IMG/VR virus record: IMGVR_UViG_3300008255_000002
Strand: one strand, 5' to 3'
Length of the DNA: 64,000 nt
Origin: a virus
Within the stretch, counting starts at the first letter, position 1, and each line of letters starts with the position of its first letter. A program made the translations under genes and the position numbers. This document shows positions 2,764 to 23,001 of this stretch, piece by piece. The notes under the pieces were generated by a model that was given only the letters and a program-made list of their open reading frames with translations, made no database searches and was not told the origin of the DNA.

Positions 2764-4047
2764 TTAATTAAGGTTTAATTTCTTTGTTCTAATATATTCC
2801 GAGGTTAGATATTTCAAGAAATGTTCATCAGAGCCACCATACGTTTCAACTTCTTCTGTTTCTGTATTTTCTTCTTTTTCCCAAGTCATCAATCTATCTT
2901 TTTGATATGATCCATCAAGCAATCTATCTCGCCCGGCTAGAAAACCTATAATAATACGTGGATCTCTAACATTTAATTCTTGTGCAAATTCAACAGCCGG
3001 ATCAATCCATTTTTCATTACCTCCATTCTCATCAATTTCCCTAACCAATATCTTTTTAATCAATGGATAATCTGGCGATTCTACAATCATTTTACTAGTT
3101 GTACGTGATGCAATTGCTCCATCTAACATATTGTCAAATTTACGTTTATTATTAGCTGCAAAAATTACCATTGACAATACTTCAACACGTCCAGACCTTT
3201 TTGCTTGTGCGGTATTCTTTTCAAACATTCCTCTCTTATCCATGATTCCTAGAAATGGATTCATGTTATTTTCTGGCGCTTTATCAGGTTCTTCAATAAA
3301 GAATAGTGGCGCAAATCCTACTTCTTTCAAATCGTGAAGAATCTTTTTCTCAAAACCTGCTTTTGTTGTCATATTTGCAGACAATTCTAATACAGAGCCA
3401 TTGGGGAGGTTTTCCGCAAGAGTTCTTAATAGTGTAGTTTTTCCACAACCCGGAGGTCCATACATCAAGATATGTTCGCGGGACTTACCTGATGTTTCCA
3501 TTGCTCTTGCAATATTTCCTGATAGGATTCTAATATGCGCCCCCATATTATAAATCCCCTTAAACCACTTATGATTTTCAATCTCTTCATCTGTACTATT
3601 TGTTAGTTTAATAAACTCATCAAAACATTCAGTTGAAAACTCATCCCAATCTAATGCTTCCGCATAAGGAATCCATATATCTGAATCTTCTACTGATTCA
3701 GCTTCAGGAAGTTTTGATGGATCAATAAACTCCTTACTTTGATTTGTGGTCCATTTGTAATTTCCCCAAGCTGAATCAGTGCAATACTTATTGATAACTC
3801 CTTCGATCTTAGAAGTTATCTTATTGTCGATATTTTTATCTGATCTTACTTCAATTTTTACAGTTAGAACCCATTGACCGCTTTCATTTTGTTTAGGGGA
3901 ATGAATACGTTCCGCAGCCACAATAAATTGATTGTTAAGAAGTTCTCCAATTTTTTGTTCCCATCTTGATACATATGAAGATACCTTATTATCATTATTT
4001 TTAGAGTTATTAACTCTTTGAATAAACATATGATAAACAGTTGACAT
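2764..4047 (-). CDS. AAA+ ATPase (RuvB-like core) with N-terminal extension
   Basis: Walker A GPPGCGKT, Walker B-like LFFIEEPDK, FAANN sensor, AIASR Arg finger. Confidence 0.8.
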   Translation of the reverse strand: MSTVYHMFIQRVNNSKNNDNKVSSYVSRWEQKIGELLNNQFIVAAERIHSPKQNESGQWVLTVKIEVRSDKNIDNKITSKIEGVINKYCTDSAWGNYKWTTNQSKEFIDPSKLPEAESVEDSDIWIPYAEALDWDEFSTECFDEFIKLTNSTDEEIENHKWFKGIYNMGAHIRILSGNIARAMETSGKSREHILMYGPPGCGKTTLLRTLAENLPNGSVLELSANMTTKAGFEKKILHDLKEVGFAPLFFIEEPDKAPENNMNPFLGIMDKRGMFEKNTAQAKRSGRVEVLSMVIFAANNKRKFDNMLDGAIASRTTSKMIVESPDYPLIKKILVREIDENGGNEKWIDPAVEFAQELNVRDPRIIIGFLAGRDRLLDGSYQKDRLMTWEKEENTETEEVETYGGSDEHFLKYLTSEYIRTKKLNLN

Positions 4048-4379
4048 TATACCTTCTTTCTATTTTTTCTTCTTTCGGCTAATCCAAGCTTAAAAGCCTT
4101 ATTACTTACACTAGAAATAGGTCTGTTTAATCTATTAGCCAATTCACCCAAAGAGATTTGCTTATTTTTCTTTTTCTCCCAAAGAAGAATTAAAGTGTTT
4201 TCTTCTTTATCGGTCCATTTTTCTCTTCCGGGTTTTCCGGTTGTTTCAACTATATTTTTCCCTGTATGAATGTTGATGATATGTCTGATAAGATCAGTTG
4301 TATTCATATAGGAATCTTTTGCAATTTTACGGAGAACGACATTTTCCGTTTCTTCGATATCTATTGTATATCTCGCCAT
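4047..4379 (-). CDS. Small DNA-binding protein (HTH)
   Basis: WTDKEENTL...LGELANRLNRPISSVSNKAFKLGL. Confidence 0.6.
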   Translation of the reverse strand: MARYTIDIEETENVVLRKIAKDSYMNTTDLIRHIINIHTGKNIVETTGKPGREKWTDKEENTLILLWEKKKNKQISLGELANRLNRPISSVSNKAFKLGLAERRKNRKKV

Positions 4380-4784: not shown

Positions 4785-5274
4785 ATTTTATTGAGATGAT
4801 GCCTCTAAAGTTTGGTTTTCCATTTACATAAATATTCCTATATCTTATAGGCTTTTCCGTTCCCTGTTTGGTTGATGGTTTGCGACTTTTCATGAATGGT
4901 TGTAATACTACCTTATCAATAGGTTCATTGTCAAGATAGTATTGTTCTGAAATTCTTTTGTGTTCGATAACCCTAAGAGCAAATTCGCCAGTATTTCTAT
5001 TTTCTACTAATGCGTTTTCTACAAAATCCGCCCATCGATGATGCTCAACGATAAAATCCGTTTCTTTATTTTCTCTCTCTCTTTGTCTATTTACGCTTGC
5101 TTCATAATCCATACCAAGAGAACAGTTAATAGTAATTACTTTCTTAATTCTACCATAATAAGGATTATTAGTTTTCTTTAAATCTGGATCAATTTCGGCG
5201 GTTAATGTAATAATTGCTGCTTTAGGGAGAGAACGAATACCATTCAACAATTGTTCTTTCGTGATAATCATCAT
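4744..5274 (-). CDS. Conserved phage hypothetical protein
   Basis: KKTNNPYYG...YEASVNRQRERE motif, recognised as typical of large-phage early genes. Confidence 0.65.
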   Translation of the reverse strand: MMIITKEQLLNGIRSLPKAAIITLTAEIDPDLKKTNNPYYGRIKKVITINCSLGMDYEASVNRQRERENKETDFIVEHHRWADFVENALVENRNTGEFALRVIEHKRISEQYYLDNEPIDKVVLQPFMKSRKPSTKQGTEKPIRYRNIYVNGKPNFRGIISIKYGDNYIVQAQQRS

Positions 5275-5836: not shown

Positions 5837-6342
5837 CTGATAATGTCGCTATTTTTATCTACAATAAAGTTGTGTTGATTCAGGTGTTGTTCAATAACTC
5901 TCTTATCATACTCTTTGAGTTTATTTTTATACATAAAACCTTTAACATAATACATTTTATTATTCTCTGCATTCATTACATCATTAGATAATTTTTCAAG
6001 TAAATCTTTATGTCTTGTATATTTTATATTTTTGATATTTTTAATTGTGTTGCTATATGTATGATCGACCATAGATTCGATATATTGTTCTAGATCATTT
6101 TTAATAAAATTCTTATCGTCATAAAAAATAATATAAATTAGTTGATTAGTTCTCCTTTCTATAACTTCTCCAATATATTTCTTTTCAATATTTGGATAAA
6201 TTAGTCTATTATTAACGTGAATAGGAAAGTTTTTTGTACGAGCAGAAAAAATATTATCAGAAACGCGAAGATCAAATTTTTCATGCTTTACGATTTCTCC
6301 TGCAACACCTTTTCGACGTAAATCATTTTCCCAGGTCAACAT
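5824..6342 (-). CDS. Hypothetical protein
   Basis: 172 aa; AAGGAG SD. Confidence 0.65.
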   Translation of the reverse strand: MLTWENDLRRKGVAGEIVKHEKFDLRVSDNIFSARTKNFPIHVNNRLIYPNIEKKYIGEVIERRTNQLIYIIFYDDKNFIKNDLEQYIESMVDHTYSNTIKNIKNIKYTRHKDLLEKLSNDVMNAENNKMYYVKGFMYKNKLKEYDKRVIEQHLNQHNFIVDKNSDIIRWRY

Positions 6343-10134: not shown

Positions 10135-11616
10135 TTACTTCGTCCGAATCAACTTACTAATCAATCGAAATGCGTATGTTTGAAGGTCTCTAGAAATATC
10201 GGTCGCACCACTATAGTGATGACTCAGTTCTTCAATACATGTTTGAGTTAACATATCGCCAAGATCATTAGATATATCCTCCCTAATATAAACCGTGTTG
10301 TCTCGATAGTATCCAAGTGTCGCGCCCTTTTCATCTGTAACTTGTCTATACAATTTAATATTCGGTCGTCCCTTATTGTTATCCATATCATTAGATTCGA
10401 TAACATTACAAATCTTATCAATTGTACACTTAACATTATCGTTACATGGAGAAATCTGCTTTCCTTCGATTTCATCAACATTCAAAACGGATGTTGGCGT
10501 TTTTACATAATTGTCCGTAAATACATTCTCAAAATTATCATCAATTAAAATTACGTTATGTCCGCGATCTTTGCACATTTCTGCAAGTAAAACACTACTC
10601 GTAACGACCGCATCCCCGAATACATTTTCACATGCATTCTTCCAATTATTCTTAATATTTTCATCATAAGAATTACGCGGATTAATGTTATATGAACTGA
10701 AGTTAGATTCAAATAGATCTTCATTTTTATTGATGACAACTTCCCTAATGAACATACTAATATTTTCAATTGATGATGCACGCAATGCTTCTGCCGCGTT
10801 ATCGTTTGCGGTATATGAATCAATAGTTCTGGACTCGTTTACTTTAATATCATTGATGTTATAATGGAACAAACTCGGCTTGCTAAATTCGCCTACCTTT
10901 ACACCCTTTCTATAGATATATGTCTTCTTATCATTTCGATTAAGAATCAACGTATCATTTTTGTTAAATGTACTTAAAAGACAGCGAAAATTCTTATATA
11001 GCTCGTTAATTGCATATTCTTCAATATCACTAATTAGTGGAATATAAACACGAATAAATCCATCTTTCGCCCGCGCCATTCTACCCTGCGTGGGAACAGT
11101 TTCGATCTTTACATTGTTATATGTACCGTTATACATTTGCGATCCATCACACGCATTAGATATGAATTCGCGCACACCCATACATACGTTATCCCAATCC
11201 AATTCACCAAATTTACTATCAATATTTAGATCGTATGTACAACCGTTTTGTTTCTTCATATATATCTTTTCTTGCCAATAATCATATCCAGAACCATCCT
11301 TAATATATTTCCCTTTAATCTCAAAGGTATAGACATCTTTCCCTAAACAAATCTTAACATAATCAAGTAGGCGGGGGTCGATATCACCATATTGGTTTTT
11401 CGTTACGTTTTTATTTGAGGGGGTGTGCTCGGTTAATCGGTAACTCATTTTAATACGTGAAAATAGGGCAATACTGTTGATTGCGCCACTACCAAATAAT
11501 CCTATAAGGTTATCAAAACCCCTTGATGTGCTTGTACCCAGGGTTGATAGTATCTCAATATCGGGAATATTTTGAATTTTGTTTTCGATCATAAGATAAC
11601 TTGTGAAACCGTTCAT
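10135..11616 (-). CDS. GHKL/Hsp90-like ATPase domain fused to a C-terminal zincin-like domain
   Basis: IGLFGSG and W...GVREFISNACD (GHKL motifs in permuted order); C-terminal TLGYY...VYI...IEELSHHYSGATD (EELSH instead of HEXXH). Confidence 0.65.
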   Translation of the reverse strand: MNGFTSYLMIENKIQNIPDIEILSTLGTSTSRGFDNLIGLFGSGAINSIALFSRIKMSYRLTEHTPSNKNVTKNQYGDIDPRLLDYVKICLGKDVYTFEIKGKYIKDGSGYDYWQEKIYMKKQNGCTYDLNIDSKFGELDWDNVCMGVREFISNACDGSQMYNGTYNNVKIETVPTQGRMARAKDGFIRVYIPLISDIEEYAINELYKNFRCLLSTFNKNDTLILNRNDKKTYIYRKGVKVGEFSKPSLFHYNINDIKVNESRTIDSYTANDNAAEALRASSIENISMFIREVVINKNEDLFESNFSSYNINPRNSYDENIKNNWKNACENVFGDAVVTSSVLLAEMCKDRGHNVILIDDNFENVFTDNYVKTPTSVLNVDEIEGKQISPCNDNVKCTIDKICNVIESNDMDNNKGRPNIKLYRQVTDEKGATLGYYRDNTVYIREDISNDLGDMLTQTCIEELSHHYSGATDISRDLQTYAFRLISKLIRTK

Positions 11617-13547: not shown

Positions 13548-13610
13548 GTATTTGTGAGTGATGAATGTCATCGCTCGCGAGATACGGAACACAAGACTGG
13601 AGAACAAAAC

Positions 13611-13988
13611 ATGAGCAAGTTTAATTCCGACAAGGCACAGCGACTTTCCCGTACCTTGAAGCTAGTCGCCGACCCCAACCGTATGCAAGCATTGGCATAT
13701 CTTTATGTCAACGGCGACACAAGCGTCGGTGCATTGTGCTCTGCTATCGGTGTCAGTCAACCGAATTTGAGTATCAATTTGAGAAACTTGTTGATGGTTG
13801 ATATTGTTAATCAGAGGCGCGACGGTAAGAATATGTATTATAGCTTGAACAAACACAGTGAACACTATTCAAGAATAAGGGGTCTCTTGAATGATGTTCT
13901 CGATGATGAGTCTGAAGCCGCGCCCAAAAAGCCAAAGGTGAACAAGTCAAAGAATGTTGATGTTTCGACTGAACTGGTCGAAGTCTAA
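13611..13988 (+). CDS. ArsR/SmtB-family transcriptional regulator
   Basis: LKLVADPNRMQAL...SVGALCSAIGVSQPNLSINL...V.QRRDGKNMYYSL; GGAG SD before 13611. Confidence 0.9.
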   Translation: MSKFNSDKAQRLSRTLKLVADPNRMQALAYLYVNGDTSVGALCSAIGVSQPNLSINLRNLLMVDIVNQRRDGKNMYYSLNKHSEHYSRIRGLLNDVLDDESEAAPKKPKVNKSKNVDVSTELVEV

Positions 13989-14500: not shown

Positions 14501-14642
14501 GCGCATATATATAAAAATGTCTTGATACAATAATATAGCCATCAATACATATGTTTGCGCGCACATATCAAATTATCTACATAGTATTTCTCCCTAACAC
14601 AAGTATTTGGCGATCAATACATATCAACACATAAGCATAAGC

Positions 14643-14740
14643 GGCGATATACATTTACTAATGGACATATCTACATACGTGGCGATATACATTTACTAAT
14701 GGACATATCTACATACGTGGCGATATACATCTACTGATGG
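14643..14740. repeat. 38-bp tandem repeat, about 2.5 copies
   Basis: GGCGATATACATTTACTAATGGACATATCTACATACGT at 14643 and 14681; degenerate third copy from 14719. Confidence 0.9.
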
Positions 14741-14810
14741 TGATATTTAGTTATGTGCATGCGTGGCGAACAAGGTTCGCTGATGTGAACATCTCTTTAT
14801 ATGTTAGCGC

Positions 14811-14849
14811 AAAAGAAAAGATCCGCCCACCCTTTCGGATAGACGGATC
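14811..14849 (-). terminator. Intrinsic terminator ending the 16.66-14.8 kb operon
   Basis: GATCCGTCTATCC-GAAA-GGGTGGGCGGATC followed by TTTTCTTTT. Confidence 0.85.
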
Positions 14850-14855
14850 ATTATA

Positions 14856-15077
14856 TCATACCATCAATCGAATCTCTCCAGTGTCCATGATGCAAACTTC
14901 AGCATATTCTGTTATCAGTGGATCAAACGATTTTATCATTTCAAAATATGCAACCAATGTTAAATCATCCTGAATAGGATTGTTATTAATACCTAACATC
15001 ATGGTATGTTCATGATTGATGCCGGGGAATTTCTTTTCGACTAGACTAAACATCTCGATAATCTGAAGCTTGTTCAT
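14856..15077 (-). CDS. Hypothetical protein
   Basis: 73 aa; GGGAGATTGA SD region shared with neighbouring genes. Confidence 0.7.
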   Translation of the reverse strand: MNKLQIIEMFSLVEKKFPGINHEHTMMLGINNNPIQDDLTLVAYFEMIKSFDPLITEYAEVCIMDTGEIRLMV

Positions 15078-15098
15078 CTCTCAATCTCCCAACGAAAC

Positions 15099-15226
15099 GT
15101 CTCGCGCGAAATGCGCTCGACAAGTAAGTATGCCACCATATTTCAGATGGCATACCTATAAATCAATTCGAACTAGTAACGCGCTAGTTCATTGGACACG
15201 TATAAATGATTTCATCATACGTGCCC
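15099..15226 (-). repeat. Two adjacent twin-hairpin elements (E4 15099-15158, E3 15169-15226)
   Basis: Each is a long hairpin with a GAAA-containing loop followed by a second hairpin (TGAACTAG...CTAGTTCGAATT in E3; more degenerate in E4). Confidence 0.7.
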
Positions 15227-15232
15227 GTTCTC

Positions 15233-15385
15233 TCAATCGATGATCAATCGCGATAACTTATAAACATCCGGTTGCGTTCCTAGAAACCGTCTAGCGTCTC
15301 TTGCTTGACGCCATTTTTTGTACCATTCGCGACGGATCTTGTCAGTAGAATGCCGACGCTTTCGTGTTGCTTCCCCTGCGCTCAT
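15233..15385 (-). CDS. Small basic protein (50 aa, not in the ORF track)
   Basis: MSAGEATRKRRHSTDKIRREWYKKWRQARDARR...; ATGA overlap with the upstream ORF. Confidence 0.55.
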   Translation of the reverse strand: MSAGEATRKRRHSTDKIRREWYKKWRQARDARRFLGTQPDVYKLSRLIID

Positions 15386-15516
15386 TTTGATAGCTCCAAT
15401 GCAACGTCATAGAAACGTGTGAACATTTGAACCGCGTTAACAACTATGATCATGGACATCGCCACGACCGCACTGATGAACACCAGCGCATGAGTCGTTC
15501 CCTGGAATCCTCTCAT
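15382..15516 (-). CDS. Small membrane peptide (44 aa, not in the ORF track)
   Basis: MRGFQGTTHALVFISAVVAMSMIIVVNAVQMF...; AGGGG SD. Confidence 0.6.
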   Translation of the reverse strand: MRGFQGTTHALVFISAVVAMSMIIVVNAVQMFTRFYDVALELSK

Positions 15517-15547
15517 GATTCAATCCCCTAATCAAACGGTTCCAATT

Positions 15548-15604
15548 CGAGCCTAGACGCTCTAGACTCAATAAGCGCCATGCCCTTTCGAGCATGACGC
15601 CTAT
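15548..15604 (-). repeat. Twin-hairpin element E2
   Basis: ATAGGCGTCATGCTC-GAAA-GGGCATGGCGCTTAT, then TGAGTCTAGA-GCG-TCTAGGCTCG AATT. Confidence 0.8.
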
Positions 15605-15610
15605 AACATA

Positions 15611-15898
15611 TCAATGGTTGTAAAGTCTCTTGACCTCGCGCTCATTCGCTTGGTTGTCGTGATAAACATCTCTGAGTCTACCACGCAGGATTCGCGCGGT
15701 TTTCACCGAATCGCGACTCATGAAAACATGCTGAATTGCGAACGGCGTTTTGATGTGAATGATCGTCTCGTCGCCTGCGCCGCTCGCATGATATGTCCCC
15801 GGCTTGATCTCAACACGCTCAATTGTTGTGTCTTTCTTTCCCTGCACAACGATGGTTCCGATTGTCGGTTCTTGAATCGTGATTGCATATGCACGCAT
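15611..15898 (-). CDS. Hypothetical protein
   Basis: GGGAGATTGATC ATG at 15898; the ORF-track extension runs through hairpin E1. Confidence 0.65.
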   Translation of the reverse strand: MRAYAITIQEPTIGTIVVQGKKDTTIERVEIKPGTYHASGAGDETIIHIKTPFAIQHVFMSRDSVKTARILRGRLRDVYHDNQANEREVKRLYNH

Positions 15899-15933
15899 GA
15901 TCAATCTCCCATGCCTACGGCATTTTGCGGAAT

Positions 15934-15992
15934 CGAGCCTAGCCAATCTAGACTCAGATGCTACGCATCCACATTTAAGAATGCGTAGCATT
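15934..15992 (-). repeat. Twin-hairpin element E1
   Basis: ATGCTACGCATTC-TTAAATGT-GGATGCGTAGCAT, then TGAGTCTAG-ATTGG-CTAGGCTCG ATT. Confidence 0.8.
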
Positions 15993-15995
15993 CGA

Positions 15996-16349
15996 TCATT
16001 TTTCGTACCACATGCTTTTCGCATGAATTGGTGTTGATGTGTTCTGTTGAGTGTACGGTTGATTTTCCCATGTTCCTCCAATAAACTTGGCTTCATGCCA
16101 TGTCAATGAAAGCCTGTTAATCGGTTTTAACCATTTCGGATCGATCTTTTTCGGATCAACGTATAGTAATCCGAATTGATCTAGGTTTACCGTTCCCTCC
16201 GATTGATCTCGAAAGCATTGATAGTCAATCTCAATTCCAGAGGGCATGTAGATTTTTCTCCCCTTTAGGGTAGTGGCGAAAATTTGCTTACCCTTGGGAA
16301 CAACAAGTTTAAACCGTAGAATGTCCGAATTGCGATGATTGATCGCCAT
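15996..16349 (-). CDS. Hypothetical protein
   Basis: AAGGGGA SD before the ATG at 16349. Confidence 0.65.
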   Translation of the reverse strand: MAINHRNSDILRFKLVVPKGKQIFATTLKGRKIYMPSGIEIDYQCFRDQSEGTVNLDQFGLLYVDPKKIDPKWLKPINRLSLTWHEAKFIGGTWENQPYTQQNTSTPIHAKSMWYEK

Positions 16350-16405
16350 TGTTCCAAATCCCCTTGATCCCATGAAAAGCCGATTATACGTTATAATCAG
16401 CATAC

Positions 16406-16467
16406 GGAATGCACGGAATCGAACCGTGAAACATGAAAACATGCTTGCGCGCCTATCGCACCATTCC
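16406..16467 (-). ncRNA. 62-nt tRNA-like cloverleaf with no anticodon loop
   Basis: GGAATG GTGCG-ATAGG-CGCGC AAGCATG-TTTT-CATGTTT CACGG-TTCGATT-CCGTG CATTCC. Confidence 0.65.
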
Positions 16468-16496
16468 TTTAGGGGAGATTTTGCGTTTCTTAAACG

Positions 16497-16616
16497 CTTG
16501 CTTGACCTGTCATATGAACGTTCTCTTATGGTATTACGTTATGCTCTAAACATAATTCAGGATTGTTCAGATCCAGCAATAAGCATAAGATACTTGCTCG
16601 CATGCGGGTTTCAAGC
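16497..16616 (-). ncRNA. Branched structured RNA in the operon leader
   Basis: Nested stems GCTTGA/TCAAGC, TCTTATG/CATAAGA, TATTGC/GTAATA, GGAT/ATCC and TTATGT/GCATAA. Confidence 0.5.
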
Positions 16617-16621
16617 TTTCG

Positions 16622-16656
16622 AGTTTTCAAAGATCGTTTGACGGTTTCTCGCCGTC
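16622..16656 (-). promoter_or_regulatory. rRNA-leader-like boxB hairpin plus boxA antitermination signal
   Basis: GACGG-CGAGAAA-CCGTC, AAAC, then GATCTTTGAAAACT, immediately after the P13 -10 box. Confidence 0.7.
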
Positions 16657-16663
16657 TGTTCCC

Positions 16664-16700
16664 ATTATAGCATTTTTTCCAACCATTCAAGAAAAATTTC
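16664..16700 (-). promoter_or_regulatory. Early promoter P13
   Basis: TTTTTC TTGAAT, 15 bp, TGc TATAAT. Confidence 0.75.
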
Positions 16701-16973
16701 TGGAAAATTCTAAATCGTTGTGACGCAACAACTTACAACCATCCAACATTACTGATATGTAAGATCACCTACTAATAAATTCTTTACGTGAAAAGATTGC
16801 TATAGTATAACATCTACATACGTTTATATCGAGACATGTTGTATTGATTAATCTACATATGAATGAATAGGGGGGTTTTTATGATTTACATGTGCCTATG
16901 TGTTTATATGAAAATATGCAGGGGGAGTACAAACAAACCTCCCATCAAAAAAACAAAACCCATCAGTAGAACG

Positions 16974-17934: not shown

Positions 17935-18423
17935 ATGAACATACAGTACAAAACAGAGATCGAACAGTTTCAGGGGGCACAATCGGAACAAAGATTAATC
18001 GAGATAATTAATTTTGTCATCGATAAACTTTATACACAGTTTGAATTTTCTTATTATACAAAAGATGATATTAGACAAGAGGCGTGGGTAATGATACTTG
18101 ATGCGTTTGCCAAGGGTTCATATGATCAAAATCGCCCAATCGAAAAATTTGCCTATAGACACATCAAAAATAGATTAATTAATCTGCGGCGCGACAAATT
18201 AAAAAATGATACCTCGCAACAATCATTAATGAATACTTCCGAAATTTTAATTGACCCGGAAGATTATTTTGTTCCCTATCATGATAACATTTCCCTAATC
18301 GAACAACGTATTCCCTGTTACCTCAGAAGTGATTTTTTGCGATTACTCGATGGGGTGCGCATCCCCGAATATAAGAAAAATAAAATTAAAAGGTATCTAT
18401 ATGAAGAAGAAATTATTAATTAA
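17935..18423 (+). CDS. Phage-encoded sigma factor (region 2 core), likely the late sigma
   Basis: YTKDDIRQEAWVMILD...YDQNRPIEKFAYRHIKNRLINLRRD; first gene of the virion module. Confidence 0.75.
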   Translation: MNIQYKTEIEQFQGAQSEQRLIEIINFVIDKLYTQFEFSYYTKDDIRQEAWVMILDAFAKGSYDQNRPIEKFAYRHIKNRLINLRRDKLKNDTSQQSLMNTSEILIDPEDYFVPYHDNISLIEQRIPCYLRSDFLRLLDGVRIPEYKKNKIKRYLYEEEIIN

Positions 18424-19189
18424 GGATATGGCTTATATCGATGAGCATTTAGATTTGCCTATCGATGAATTAGCGGGATATTGTGGTGTGCCCCCTAAGA
18501 TGGTGAGAGATTATCTTAAGGGGCGACAACCCAGAAAAGAACAACCAGTTGTTTCACCAACACTCAGATCAAAACCCGAGTGGGCTTATATTTGTCGGCA
18601 ATTTACAGATGAAGAATTATCTTTTTATGAACATTGCTATAATAGAATGCTTGAACAATTTAAAGAAGATGTTGTTTATACAGAAGAAATTCAGGTACAT
18701 AAAGCTATAGAATTAGATATTTTTATGTTGCGTAATAAAATTAATAGGCGGCGTACCATAGATCAAATTCAATGGATCGAAGAACAATTACAAGAAGAAC
18801 TTTTATTAGATGAGAGCGCTCAAAACCAAAATAAAATTAATGCCTTGCGCGAACAACTCTCAGCTTTTAATAGCGTTGTCGTTTCAACAAATCGTGAATA
18901 TACTGATCTCCTTAACCAACATAATAAGATTATGGAGAGTCTACAGGGTACGCGCGAACAGTTGCGTAATAAACAATTTAATACAAAAATTGATATATTT
19001 TCTGTATTAAAAGATTTAGATGATGAAGATTATAGATCAAAACAAATTGTACAACAAGAGTTGGCGAAAAAAGCAATGGAATCAAAAAATGCAATATTAG
19101 GTTCTCTACACACTTTTATTGATGGAAGTGTAGATATTCCTATATTAACTGCTGAAAATTATGATAAGGTTGAATCAGAGAATGAATAA
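18401..19189 (+). CDS. HTH plus coiled-coil protein, possible terminase small subunit
   Basis: N-terminal HTH (IDELAGYCGVPPKMVRDYL), long coiled coil, position upstream of terL. Confidence 0.5.
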   Translation: MKKKLLIKDMAYIDEHLDLPIDELAGYCGVPPKMVRDYLKGRQPRKEQPVVSPTLRSKPEWAYICRQFTDEELSFYEHCYNRMLEQFKEDVVYTEEIQVHKAIELDIFMLRNKINRRRTIDQIQWIEEQLQEELLLDESAQNQNKINALREQLSAFNSVVVSTNREYTDLLNQHNKIMESLQGTREQLRNKQFNTKIDIFSVLKDLDDEDYRSKQIVQQELAKKAMESKNAILGSLHTFIDGSVDIPILTAENYDKVESENE

Positions 19190-19279: not shown

Positions 19280-19766
19280 ATGCAAAAAGTAAAAGTTTTA
19301 GTTGATACTCGTGAACAATGTCCGTGGAAATTTACGGAAAATAGTTGGTGTTCTGGATCTGAAATTACAACACTAAAAACGGGCGATTATACTTTAGAGG
19401 GGTTTGAAGATAAATTGTGTGTAGAAAAAAAAAAGCGTAAACGAATTTTATAATAATATTGTAACTAAAGATTATATTCGTTTTACTAAAGAGTTAGAAC
19501 GTATGAAACCTTTCCCTAACAAATATATTATCTTATGTTTTAATATGAATGATATTATTAAGTTTCCCTGGTCTACAGACCTACCAATTCACGTAAAAAG
19601 AAAAATTGTCGCAAGAGGCAGTAAATCAGATTTCTTCCTAAAAAGATTTGTTGAACTTCAAATAGCCTATCCAGATATTCATTTTCTTTTATGTGGGGAT
19701 GAAGCTGAAAAGGTTGTTAGTTCTATATTTAAAAGAGTGGTAGAATATTATGCAGAAAAAAGTTAA
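19280..19766 (+). pseudogene. ERCC4-domain nuclease split by a +1 frameshift in an A10 run
   Basis: Frame 0 reads VLVDTREQCPW...LKTGDYTLEG...LCVEKK and stops at 19453. The +1 frame continues SVNEFYNNI...RFTKELERMKPFP into ORF 19503-19766. Confidence 0.8.
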
Positions 19767-22700
19767 TCTTAGAGATTTTTTCGATAAATATTATGAAGAT
19801 GGAGAGGATGAATTTTCTTATCTAGAAACAGATGGAGGTTTAGATTTAGACGATTTAGCAAAATCAGAAATAGACATATCTAACAATCCATTTTTTGATA
19901 AAAAAGAAGATGCAGTTAGGAAGTTTTGTAGGGTTATTAGAGATCCAGATTATCTACCATTTACATGTGAACATGTTTTTAATATAGAGTTACTTCCTAC
20001 ATATCACGTCACAATGAAGCATTTATATAATCATTCCTTCCCAATGCTTATTGGTAGTCGTGGATTTGGAAAAAGCTTTACATTAGCTTTATATATATTG
20101 TGGCGACTATTAATTAATCAAGGTATTAAAGTTGTTGTTGTTGGTGCGGCATTCCGCCAATCAAAACTTATATTTAATTATTGTTTATCTATTCTTGAAC
20201 GTGCGCCGGTATATCAAAGTATGTGTGGAAATGGTTCTAAGATCAAGATATTAAAAGGGAACGATAAATGCACTATTCAGGTCGGTGAAAGTTTTGCAAC
20301 GTTTTTACCATTAGGTGATGGAGAAACAATTCGTGGTGAACGTGCTAATATTATTATTGCTGATGAATTTTCCATGATACCAGTTGATGTATATGAAACT
20401 GTTGTTAAAGGGTTTACTGCTGTTTCTCAAAATCCTATTAAAAACGTTAAACAAATCGCCAAAATGATGAGAAAAAAGAAAAAAGGATTATGGTCAAAAG
20501 AACAAGAAATTCTTTTTCAAGAAATGATGAAGTCTAATCAATCAATTGTATCTGGTACTGCATATTATTCTTTTAATTCTTTTTGTGATTATTGGAAAAA
20601 ATATAAAAAAATTATACAAAATAAAAATATAAAAGAAGCTGTTAAAGAAGAGGATGCTTATGCGCATTGTAATCGTAAAGATTTTTGTGTGCTTCGTATT
20701 CCTTTTGATTTAATTCCAACAGGATTTTTGGATATGAAATCCTTAAATCAAACAAAGGAAATGATCGCGGATTCTACATTTCAAATGGAATATGGCGCAT
20801 GTTTAACTCCAGATACAGAAGTTATTACATTAGACGGGATTAAAAAAATTATTAATGTAAAGGTTGGAGATTATGTATTAACACATCTTGGAAGGTGGCG
20901 AAAAGTTATCGAAGTAATGAAGCGGAAATATTTAGGTAATATATATAAAATTAAAGCATATGGAAATAATCAAAATATAGGCGTGACCCCAAACCATCCA
21001 TTTTATATTGATGAGGATTGGGAAAATTCTGCCAATTTAAAAAATAAAAAATTAGAACTTGCAAGATTTAATCATCTTAATAATACAACATCAATTAAAA
21101 TATCTGATTATGTAGATAGTATATGTAAAACAGTAGTTAATGATGTAGAATATGTTTATCCTAAACCATCACAATTAAAATGTTTTAAAGATCATCATAT
21201 AAAATATAAATCATGCATTCCAAATGAAATTAAACTTGATTATAATTTCGGATTGATTATTGGTTATTATGCGGCGGAAGGTAGCGTTGGAGCAAATGGT
21301 AGGGCGGTTTCTTTTTCTCTTGATGGTCATGTTGATATTAGTTTATTAGAATATATAAAAGAATTGAAAGATGCCCTTTTATCAACTTTTGAAATGAATT
21401 CCGTAGAATATCCAAAAGAAGATAATGTTGTTGATGTTTGTATGAACAGTAGATTAGTATCTGATCTATTAAAAAAAATATGTCCTAGTGTATCAGATAC
21501 AAAACATGTTAATACAGATATATTATACTCAAATCCAGAATTTATGAAGGGGTTTATTACTGGTTATTGGCATGGTGCCGGATGTGTACATAAAGATAAA
21601 TCAAGAAACAGATATCGTATTGTCGCGGGATGCACAAATAAATCTCTTTTATCTCAAGTTCGATTATGTATGTCTTATTTTGGTATTAAATCATCTTTAA
21701 ATAATGGAAAAGAAAAACATAAATCTTACTTTAGAGGGAGGGTATGTAATTGTAAACCATCATATATAGTACAAATATCAGAATCGTATTTAGATGAGTT
21801 TATTAAATTTATATCCGACAAAGAATATTTCCCCCCTAACCAAAATAAAAAAACACATAAGTTTATAAAGAGAGTTTATAAAGAAGAACATTATAGTGGA
21901 TTTGTTTATAATTTAGAAGTTGAGGAAGATCATAGTTATTCATTAATTAATGCTACAGTACATAATTGTTTTCCTGAAGATTCCAATGGTTTCTTTACTA
22001 GAAAATTAATTGAATCTTGTGTTGTGAAATCAGAAAGACAAATAGGACACGAAATTATATATCCTTTTACGGCAAGTATTATTGGTATAGACCATCCATT
22101 ATTTTATGCAATGGGTGTGGACCCTGCATCAGCAGAGGATAATTTTAGTATTGTTGTTATATCTGTATACCAAACATATAGAAAAATTGTTTATTGTTGG
22201 ACTATTAGAAAATCTATTCTTGCAGAACATATTAAAGAAGGTAGGGTTGATCAACAGGATTATTATGGATATTGCGCGAAAAAAATTAGAAATGTTATGA
22301 AGTCATTTTCTCCGTGCGAAATTATTGCTTTGGATGCTCAGGGTGGTGGTGAAGCTGGCGTAGCAGAAGCATTAGCAGATAAAGATAAATATTCAGAAAA
22401 AGACCTTCCTATATTCCCCGTAACAGAAGACCATCCGTTTTGGGATGGTAAAGAACGACATACAGATAAAATGACAGGGAAACATATTATTGAATTAGTT
22501 CAATTCGCGCGTGCTGATTATATTTCAGAAGCTAATCACGGATTAAAGAAAGATATGATAGATAAGGTATTACTATTTCCTATATTTGATGCAATATCTT
22601 TATCTACCGCACAATACCACGATGACGAAGAAGGCTTAGAATATGATAATTTAGAATTATGTATGTTAGAAATAGAAGAATTAAAAGATGAATTAGCGAC

Positions 22701-23001
22701 GATTCAACATGGACAACATCCAAAAACCAATAGAGATTATTGGGATACTCCAGAAAAGAAACTTGCCGAAAACAAAAAGGGTCGGTTAAGGAAGGATAGA
22801 TATAGCGCTTTATTAATAGCAAATATGGCGGCGCGTCGCTTACAACGCATGCCAGAAATATATAACAGAATGGTTGTTGGTGGTTTTGCTCAAAAATCAT
22901 CTATTAAAAAACAAATTAATTCCGGGGATAAAAATTTGTTTGTTGGTCCGCAAAAATACGTTAAGTCATTAAATATTTGTGCTGCTGTACGTAGACAATA
23001 A
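19750..23001 (+). CDS. terL: Terminase large subunit containing an intein
   Basis: Walker A GSRGFGKS, IRGERANIIIADEF, nuclease MGVDPA and RKDRYSAL. Confidence 0.95.
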   Translation: MQKKVNLRDFFDKYYEDGEDEFSYLETDGGLDLDDLAKSEIDISNNPFFDKKEDAVRKFCRVIRDPDYLPFTCEHVFNIELLPTYHVTMKHLYNHSFPMLIGSRGFGKSFTLALYILWRLLINQGIKVVVVGAAFRQSKLIFNYCLSILERAPVYQSMCGNGSKIKILKGNDKCTIQVGESFATFLPLGDGETIRGERANIIIADEFSMIPVDVYETVVKGFTAVSQNPIKNVKQIAKMMRKKKKGLWSKEQEILFQEMMKSNQSIVSGTAYYSFNSFCDYWKKYKKIIQNKNIKEAVKEEDAYAHCNRKDFCVLRIPFDLIPTGFLDMKSLNQTKEMIADSTFQMEYGACLTPDTEVITLDGIKKIINVKVGDYVLTHLGRWRKVIEVMKRKYLGNIYKIKAYGNNQNIGVTPNHPFYIDEDWENSANLKNKKLELARFNHLNNTTSIKISDYVDSICKTVVNDVEYVYPKPSQLKCFKDHHIKYKSCIPNEIKLDYNFGLIIGYYAAEGSVGANGRAVSFSLDGHVDISLLEYIKELKDALLSTFEMNSVEYPKEDNVVDVCMNSRLVSDLLKKICPSVSDTKHVNTDILYSNPEFMKGFITGYWHGAGCVHKDKSRNRYRIVAGCTNKSLLSQVRLCMSYFGIKSSLNNGKEKHKSYFRGRVCNCKPSYIVQISESYLDEFIKFISDKEYFPPNQNKKTHKFIKRVYKEEHYSGFVYNLEVEEDHSYSLINATVHNCFPEDSNGFFTRKLIESCVVKSERQIGHEIIYPFTASIIGIDHPLFYAMGVDPASAEDNFSIVVISVYQTYRKIVYCWTIRKSILAEHIKEGRVDQQDYYGYCAKKIRNVMKSFSPCEIIALDAQGGGEAGVAEALADKDKYSEKDLPIFPVTEDHPFWDGKERHTDKMTGKHIIELVQFARADYISEANHGLKKDMIDKVLLFPIFDAISLSTAQYHDDEEGLEYDNLELCMLEIEELKDELATIQHGQHPKTNRDYWDTPEKKLAENKKGRLRKDRYSALLIANMAARRLQRMPEIYNRMVVGGFAQKSSIKKQINSGDKNLFVGPQKYVKSLNICAAVRRQ
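20800..21966 (+). mobile_element. Intein (389 aa) with LAGLIDADG homing endonuclease
   Basis: QMEYGA|CLTPDTEV, block B VTPNHPF, VYNLEVEEDHSY...VHN|CF; LAGLIDADG helices GLIIGYYAAEGS and GFITGYWHGAGC. Confidence 0.95.

Follow-up and report, generated by a model that had tools for sequence, protein, structure and literature searches.

The subject of this analysis is a transcription unit on the minus strand of IMG/VR record IMGVR_UViG_3300008255_000002, of which a stretch of 64,000 nucleotides (hereafter the window) was analysed. The unit spans positions 16690-14811 and consists, in this order, of a promoter, a hairpin, a boxA-like motif, a leader, a tRNA-shaped fold, five small genes and a terminator. 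Judged by its sequence, the leader is seemingly a faithful copy of the leader of a ribosomal RNA (rrn) operon of Bacillota, and the tRNA-shaped fold is conserved by compensatory change at a syntenic position in related phages. We see an even chance that the whole is a polycistronic unit transcribed by the host polymerase (sigma-A), probably early, in which the leader copies the host rrn leader and expression would depend on antitermination and on cutting by RNase P and RNase Z. The first-pass annotation, made by a model from the letters alone, had set out the parts in this order on the minus strand, and every feature that it listed is present; a sigma-A-type operon of small ORFans is likewise supported, and the immediate-early host takeover that it suggested is plausible for ORFans driven by sigma-A.

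Two related phages provide most of the comparisons. L014 is a 10.8-kb metagenomic contig of 47% GC, syntenic with the window and found through P0011, a homologue of the first gene of the unit (g1); L017/L045 is a 166-kb IMG/VR record of 65% GC, reached via a conserved 18-mer and via sigma and terS-like genes. The features that precede g1 in the window are the following (nt, nucleotides; bp, base pairs).

16664-16690, minus strand: predicted sigma-A-type promoter, with TTGAAT (16690-16685), a 15-nt spacer and the extended -10 element TGcTATAAT (16672-16664).
16640-16656, minus strand: 5'-terminal hairpin, GACGG-CGAGAAA-CCGUC, 5 bp by folding, named boxB in the first-pass annotation.
16622-16635, minus strand: boxA-like motif GATCTTTGAAAACT (as RNA ACGAUCUUUGAAA; also written GAUCUUUGAAAACU), matching the Bacillus subtilis consensus.
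16468-16621, minus strand: untranslated structured leader of ~150 nt, folding below shuffles (z -2.7).
16406-16467, minus strand: tRNA-shaped four-way junction of 62 nt (the mimic), whose linker-free cloverleaf is the minimum free energy (MFE) fold.
16379-16401, minus strand: hairpin of 10 bp, then UUUU, 4 nt after the mimic and before the g1 ribosome-binding site.

The boxA-like motif and the leader

Transcription is expected to start near 16657, as predicted from the promoter, whose TGnTATAAT is the sole intergenic instance on the minus strand of the region; the promoter of L014 (TTGATT-17-TAGTAT) lies at the equivalent relative place. The boxA-like motif begins ~22 nt after the expected start and is parted from the 5' hairpin by an AAAC spacer. 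In the rrn operons of B. subtilis a small 5' hairpin is followed at once by the boxA-like consensus AUGAUCUUUGAAA, as compared to UGCUCUUUAACA in Escherichia coli, and the boxA RNA of the B. subtilis rrn leader binds BsNusB (PMC13753749, mBio 2026). Of the 13 positions of the B. subtilis consensus, the phage motif shares 12. Since a near-match is weak evidence in AT-rich DNA, the exact 14-mer was scanned in 185,579 species genomes. The matches listed were rich in Bacillota and many lay at contig ends; among them were Paenibacillus, Gracilibacillus, Oceanobacillus, Halobacillus, Enterococcus, uncultured gut Bacilli and Mycoplasma sp. CAG:956. In four of the eight loci tested (L161, L147, L184 and L165) 16S starts 70-130 nt downstream of the exact 14-mer, and the Bacillota contexts are ordered like the phage, with a -10 element, a short hairpin, an A-rich spacer and the motif. 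The first-pass annotation had recognised in a hairpin and boxA directly after a promoter the layout of bacterial rrn leaders, and had advised a comparison with them; the four Bacillota loci upstream of 16S, together with the published operons (PMC13753749), bear this out and give the layout as that of Bacillota. Being such a copy, the phage leader points to a host among the Bacillota, most likely a low-GC member.

In L014 the sequence UGCUCUUUGACA stands right after the promoter and agrees with the E. coli boxA consensus at 11 of 12 positions (0.01 expected), so that the two related phages have boxA-like motifs of different bacterial types at corresponding places. Of 401 Pseudomonadota genomes, 3 contain the exact 15-mer of L014, which in two cases lies at a contig end. 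No N- or Q-like family was detected, in agreement with the first-pass annotation; a Pfam and PHROG comparison of the five genes and their neighbours gave no match to an antiterminator protein, which an ORFan might still encode.

The remainder of the leader is not conserved in L014. For the 120-nt branched RNA described in the first-pass annotation this relative offers no counterpart, the place being occupied by a gene. In the MFE fold of 16335-16660 the tail of the leader, AAAUCUCCCCU, can pair with the Shine-Dalgarno sequence of g1, AAGGGGAUUU, across the mimic, a pairing not conserved in L014; as an extra restricted to the window, it might mask the Shine-Dalgarno sequence until the mimic is removed. 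A leader peptide was considered as well, and dropped because the 25-codon open reading frame (ORF) concerned is without a Shine-Dalgarno sequence.

Structural conservation of the tRNA-shaped element

In the window the acceptor of the mimic measures 6 bp, the D arm 5 bp (loop AUAGG), the middle arm 7 bp (loop UUUU) and the T arm 5 bp, its loop being the canonical UUCGAUU. The GG of the D loop is present, the discriminator is followed by U, and neither linkers nor an encoded CCA occur. With a tetraloop on its middle arm and neither a seven-nt anticodon loop nor a variable region, the mimic has lost everything needed for decoding. ARAGORN found no tRNA in the window or in the relatives, Rfam at gathering score gave nothing on the window, and an 86-nt search returned no match to RF00005 at E up to 10. 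Below threshold, the Rfam family that matches the mimic best is mascRNA (RF01684), over the full length, and the score of 18.6 bits against a gathering threshold of 42.5 makes mascRNA an analogue of the phage mimic and not its family. The parts that are kept, i.e., the acceptor/T stack, the T loop and the D-loop GG, together with the lack of CCA and the U after the discriminator, are features that RNase P and RNase Z read. The window, L014 and L045 are alike in all this, with the acceptor stacked on a T stem of 5 bp whose loop reads UUCRANY, a D-loop GG and no CCA.

The element of L014 (1686-1749) is intergenic, just upstream of the g1 homologue, and forms the same four-way junction, with an acceptor of 8 bp, a D arm of 4 bp (loop GAUGG), a 7-bp arm ending in a tetraloop and a T arm of 5 bp (UUCAACU); L045 has a mimic at 10664-10732, with loop UUCGAUU, and a D-arm-less variant 900 nt further on. 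As MAFFT alignments of the mimics were structurally wrong, the pairs were tabulated by hand for comparison, and a covariance model was derived from one sequence. Between the window and L014, 22 pairs are comparable, of which 6 are identical, 2 are changed on one side and 14 on both, and none is broken; the other two pairwise comparisons were similar. The covariance model derived from the window mimic alone ranked L014 1686-1749 first (22.6 bits, E 5e-5) and the elements of L045 second (10664-10732) and fourth, and found no second copy in the window. The tRNA-like cloverleaf of the first-pass annotation is indeed a conserved structured element in relatives.

A descriptor composed of the T arm and the acceptor closure had one match in the window, one in L014 and one in L045, and in all three it matched nothing but these mimic elements. 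In ~1 Mb of distant relatives it retrieved true tRNAs and four other matches, two of which have the same sequence (L097 and L101). No anticodon-less tRNA mimic was found in 80 distant relatives identified through the terS-like protein, nor was the exact T-arm motif found in IMG/VR. Arrays of true tRNAs, for Thr, Gln, Asn, Ser, Glu and others, do occur in distant relatives whose terS-like protein is 27-32% identical (L066 713-1103, L071 668-1225, L078 1502-1803 and L125 96-563). Since the arrays lie on the same strand and the same side of the sigma/terminase block as the mimic of the window, the mimics may descend from co-transcribed tRNA genes and keep the processing role only. A tmRNA-like cloverleaf or an attP remnant was rejected, since neither a tag frame nor an integrase is present and conservation extends over the entire fold, not just a 3' half. 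A 26-nt stretch of the mimic (16420-16445, the middle arm and the start of the T arm, AGCAUGUUUUCAUG) recurs with 85% identity at 15707-15732, within g2, which may be chance or a trace of recombination.

The hairpin that follows the mimic was called terminator-like in the first-pass annotation. It is not a conserved terminator: of its equivalents, which follow the mimic at a distance of 3 nt in L014 and of 2 nt in L045, the one in L045 has no U tract. In all three phages a hairpin within 2-4 nt of the mimic is followed by a ribosome-binding site and a gene. This short distance, together with the lack of a U tract in relatives, is the reason why the hairpin at 16401-16379 is better read as a putative 5' stabiliser of a processed g1 mRNA than as a terminator; a hairpin just 3' of an mRNA 5' end has the geometry that shields from 5'-end-dependent decay.

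Genes, junction hairpins and terminator

Downstream of this hairpin the unit comprises the following features (aa, amino acids).

15996-16349, minus strand: g1, 117 aa, with distant homologues P0008, P0010 and P0011.
15934-15991, minus strand: twin hairpin at the g1/g2 junction; A of 13 bp (15991-15958), B of 9 bp (15956-15934, GAGUCUAG..CUAGGCUC); z -6.0.
15611-15898, minus strand: g2, 95 aa, an ORFan that found only itself among 5.8 billion proteins.
15547-15603, minus strand: twin hairpin at the g2/g3 junction; A of 14 bp, B with the same stem as at g1/g2; z -5.1.
15382-15516, minus strand: g3, 44 aa, hydrophobic, overlapping g4 by ATGA.
15233-15385, minus strand: g4, 50 aa, basic, overlapping g3 by ATGA.
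15099-15226, minus strand: two copies of the twin hairpin at the g4/g5 junction; A 15226-15194, B 15190-15170, C 15158-15125, D 15121-15099; z -6.2.
14856-15077, minus strand: g5, 73 aa, an ORFan with no Pfam or PHROG family.
14820-14849, minus strand: intrinsic terminator, a 13-bp stem then the U tract UUUUCUUUU; z -5.8.
Within 14811-14849, minus strand: conserved motif TTTGCGCTAACATAT after the terminator, which follows three L014 terminators too.

The first-pass annotation had described five small unknown genes with twin hairpins at three of their four junctions and a strong terminator at the end, and both descriptions are confirmed, as is the higher GC content of the cassette (42-49% at 15000-16500, as compared to a window mean of ~31%). 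None of g1-g5 has a Pfam or PHROG family, and all have strong Shine-Dalgarno sequences. The N-terminal ~78 aa of g1 are modelled as a small beta-barrel domain, with predicted local distance difference test (pLDDT) values of 85-90 over residues 10-78; compared with the PDB, the model gave no significant match, only weak SH3b-like ones with E of at least 0.09. Between g2 and the syntenic gene of L014 there is a weak end-to-end similarity (E 0.025).

None of 200 shuffles folds as well as the junction hairpins. The stem of hairpin B, GAGUCUAG/CUAGGCUC, is exactly identical at g1/g2 and g2/g3, the pattern GAGTCTAG-N5-CTAGGCTCGA being found twice where 0.01 would be expected, and the G-U pairs in the stems are compatible with the transcribed strand only. 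The twin hairpins are most likely processing and/or stability determinants of individual cistrons.

Several repeated elements accompany these structures. The start block of g2, g3 and g5 is near-identical (GGGAGAUUGA or AGGGGAUUGA, then 3-5 nt and AUG; 15899-15912, 15517-15532 and 15078-15093), which suggests duplicated cassette borders. Directly past the U tracts of cassette terminators the motif TTTGCGCYA(A/T)CATATMAA is found, both in the window (14794-14819) and in L014 (3608-3640, 5030-5060 and 6125-6150); a scan of IMG/VR for the post-terminator motif yielded chance matches only. The relatives have Y-shaped junction elements (L014 2117-2165 and 2575-2625, L013 1105-1155, L012 787-868), whose shared outer stem is GGCGCG/CGCGCC and in which a 5-bp arm, closed by a loop of 7 nt, abuts the 3' strand; in L012 a long hairpin adjoins one of T-arm type, the loop of which is UUCGAUU. 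The series of punctuation elements appears to be graded, from the full tRNA mimic to the twin hairpin.

Proposed mechanism and alternative explanations

Loading of Nus factors, cleavage by RNase P and RNase Z, a stabilising hairpin and early timing, all of which we infer from the sequence, could combine as follows. Host RNA polymerase would start near 16657, and the nascent hairpin and boxA would load NusB-S10 and partners, as on rrn operons. The modified complex, resistant to termination and pausing, would read past the weak hairpin with U4 (16401-16379) and the dense intercistronic hairpins; a polymerase expected to become termination-resistant could therefore cross 1.85 kb of hairpin-rich, partly untranslated RNA. 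RNase P would cut at the 5' side of the mimic and RNase Z at its 3' side, in keeping with the missing CCA and with the U after the discriminator, so that the leader would be parted from the g1 mRNA. The new 5' end of this mRNA would lie 2-4 nt before the shielding hairpin, and the twin hairpins would set additional boundaries, of processing or of stability. Whether a whole clade of large phages runs its early operons as imitations of stable-RNA operons, with a host-specific rrn boxA and with anticodon-less, tRNA-shaped punctuation for RNase P and RNase Z as the counterpart in bacterial viruses of mitochondrial tRNA punctuation, is a wider claim that we consider possible but doubtful; under it, the boxA leader and the 62-nt mimic, once released, might also act by themselves, e.g., by titrating NusB-S10 or tRNA-binding factors.

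A number of points weigh against this interpretation. That rrn-type complexes act in antitermination in Bacillota is itself still an open question (PMC13753749). In the AT-rich window, matches to the 13-nt B. subtilis consensus with at most one mismatch are not rare (3 found, 0.47 expected), and the weight of the boxA-like motif therefore lies in its position and in the comparison with other genomes, not in the match alone. Among the relatives, in which the first-pass annotation had anticipated a conserved boxA, L014 has a motif of E. coli type after the promoter; none was seen in the leaders of L045 and L012, nor in two shorter units of L014, and no rRNA is visible near the exact L014 15-mer in the three Pseudomonadota loci. 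As the host of the phage is itself a prediction, the boxA is of a presumed host type. As for the mimic, only three clear instances are available, and their alignment by structure favours apparent compensation. The acceptor and T stack measures 11 bp in the window and 13 bp in the relatives, as compared to 12 bp in tRNA, and with these stack lengths and no linker nucleotides the L-shape and recognition by RNase P and RNase Z are not guaranteed. The junction stems, of 9-14 bp, are shorter than classic RNase III sites.

Other explanations of the same features were weighed. The structures could function in cis, in 5'/3' stability, in translation control or as folding insulators, without being cleavage signals, or the 62-nt RNA could be the product itself, a small tRNA mimic that binds a tRNA-recognising factor of host or phage; in either form we regard this reading as unlikely. 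Retention of the structure of the mimic without its sequence in L014 and L045 would agree with such roles, as would the capability of the leader tail to pair with the g1 Shine-Dalgarno sequence across the mimic, and the T-arm half of the mimic resembles the Deinococcus Y RNA model below threshold (13 bits). The pairing is, however, not conserved in L014, the lack of a Ro-binding stem and ends that are a plain acceptor helix speak against a Y-RNA-like product, and the features kept are those that, from the general knowledge of RNase P and RNase Z, processing enzymes read. A reading of the elements as relics, with the tRNA shape a decaying tRNA gene, the boxA match fortuitous and the hairpins terminator leftovers of mosaic cassettes, is improbable in our judgement: distant relatives do have true tRNA clusters on the same strand and side, one-mismatch boxA matches do arise by chance in the window, and GC and gene content suggest mosaic, horizontally exchanged cassettes, but a decaying gene would not retain each of its 22-23 pairs unbroken through 14 double changes at a syntenic site in phages of 31-65% GC, two phages have boxA-like motifs directly after the promoter, each resembling a different bacterial type, and hairpin B is identical at two junctions.

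The leader RNA might also be a decoy, transcribed in bulk off a strong early promoter and detached from the mRNA, whose boxA would soak up NusB-S10 and lower host rRNA synthesis, instead of or besides protecting the phage transcript. In keeping with this, the motif has the exact form of a host-type boxA, the leader is a separate, structured, untranslated segment of 190 nt bounded by a putative processing site, and no strong internal terminator demands antitermination, bar one weak hairpin with U4; nonetheless the notion is pure conjecture, stoichiometric titration of abundant S10 and NusB would be demanding, and the L014 boxA is directly followed by a gene rather than by a releasable leader, so that we hold a decoy to be very improbable. 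Action of the junction hairpins at the level of DNA, as recombination or exchange points comparable to integron attC or to repeat-mediated module shuffling, is extremely improbable. It would account for the different gene content of the window and L014 inside one conserved frame, for the recurrence of hairpin B and of the ribosome-binding-site block GGGAGAUUGA at several junctions and for CTAG-rich palindromes that recur in relatives, but no integrase or recombinase lies beside the cassette, the G-U pairs of the stems fit only the transcribed strand, and the T loop and boxA would be left unexplained.

Relation to known systems

The closest parallel to the phage leader is the rrn leader of Bacillota, in which a sigma-A promoter, a short 5' hairpin, an A-rich spacer and GAUCUUUGAAA(ACU) occur in the same order and spacing (PMC13753749). 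The exact 14-mer is common to the phage and to the 16S leaders of Guptibacillus, Gracilibacillus, Fontibacillus and a metagenome-assembled genome of Enterococcus. Unlike those leaders, the phage motif heads protein-coding genes and not rRNA, and no boxC or leader-trailer helix was identified. With lambda nut, E. coli rrn, suhB and CRISPR leaders the unit has in common a nascent boxA just after the promoter and the presumed recruitment of NusB-S10. The use of host Nus factors by phages is classic; in contrast to lambda, however, no N-type protein or boxB-N pair was detected, and the phage design is of the rrn (protein-independent) and Bacillota type.

The tRNA-shaped divider recalls mascRNA/MALAT1 and mitochondrial tRNA punctuation, in which a tRNA-shaped fold is likewise embedded between functional segments of a transcript, with a shortened anticodon arm. 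mascRNA is a tRNA mimic released by RNase P and RNase Z; the setting of the phage mimic is bacterial, and its cleavage is a prediction. Substrates of RNase P outside tRNA include the C4 RNA precursor of P1/P7, the species 1 RNA of T4 (rnaC) and operon mRNAs of E. coli. Like C4 RNA and T4 rnaC, the mimic brings acceptor/T-arm features of tRNA into a phage transcript for maturation; it differs from them as a compact, linker-free divider between a boxA leader and an mRNA, with a fixed hairpin after it and only its shape kept across the clade. RNase III-punctuated early operons are known from T7 and from the Bacillus phage SP82, and these resemble the present one as early operons of small genes for host polymerase, with conserved intercistronic stem-loops and a single terminator at the end; the twin hairpins of 9-14 bp are, however, unlike the irregular duplexes of ~20 bp found there, and the mimic and the rrn-type boxA are additions.

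Use of Nus factors by phages, cleavage of phage RNAs by RNase P and hairpin-punctuated early operons are thus each already known. In the literature searched we found no description of an N-independent, Bacillota-type rrn leader before phage protein genes, nor of a boxA leader joined to an anticodon-less, tRNA-shaped divider kept by shape across a phage clade. The first-pass annotation had proposed an undescribed system, which does not apply to the components, each being of a known kind; their combination in a phage appears to be new. A Bacillota-type leader in a phage would be independent evolutionary evidence that boxA is useful in Gram-positives, and a compact natural construct for testing it. 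If the proposed punctuation is true, tRNA punctuation of mRNAs extends from organelles and MALAT1-type RNAs to phages of 31% to 65% GC. The mimic escapes ARAGORN and Rfam and represents a class of elements that current annotation misses, and the type of boxA (Bacillota in the window, E. coli in L014) may help to predict the hosts of uncultured phages.

Genome setting and relatives

A terminase fragment, a tape-measure protein of 3018 aa and rIIA mark the window as part of an uncultured large phage, for which the longest contig with the same genes is ~154 kb. Its nearest cultured kin are remote (22% identity in the rIIA of the window), and no DNA similarity was found to any of 50,697 phage records. 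The first-pass annotation had recommended collecting related genomes through terL or MCP; in IMG/VR none was retrieved through g2, the 301-aa protein encoded upstream or terL. Other contigs with g2 belong to essentially the same strain (100% identical, 99.9% in L008) and offer no variation, and the 301-aa protein has a single distant homologue, an uninformative one from a bacterial sugar-utilisation locus. As well as iterons and the terminator motif, L014 shares two genes with the window, having homologues of g1 and of the gene for 301 aa upstream; inside this conserved frame the gene content differs. Its layout includes the 18-mer AATCATAAAAACCCCCCT, the promoter, small genes parted by branched hairpin structures and a convergent ArsR-type gene, with terminators that are followed by TTTGCGCYAACATAT and by CGTATG-type iterons.

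The 18-mer AATCATAAAAACCCCCCT lies ~200 nt upstream of the operon promoter and is kept in phages of 31% to 65% GC (window 16869-16886, L014 1034-1051, L017 1215-1230, L012 ~40-58). A 38-nt tandem iteron with ACGTATGTAGAT is present three times just past the operon terminator (window 14618-14757) and once more ~150 nt upstream of the operon promoter (16812-16823), and in L014 repeats of CGTATG(C/T)A(C/G)ATATG come after every cassette terminator (3640-4330, 5060-5140 and 6170-6260). The iterons may serve a regulator as operators, the convergent ArsR-type protein (13554-13988) being one candidate, or may form an origin.

Elsewhere in the window, the large terminase ORF (window 19750-23001) encodes 1083 aa, in which similarity to terminases is restricted to residues ~50-240 and an unrelated PHROG matches residues 349-421, and it may contain an inserted element or an intein, or be a fusion. 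The protein of 162 aa encoded at 17935-18423 has a weak match to sigma-70 region 2 and is followed at 18329-19189 by a conserved protein of 270-290 aa; the pair, likely a phage sigma factor and a small-terminase-like protein, occurs in more than 120 IMG/VR contigs.

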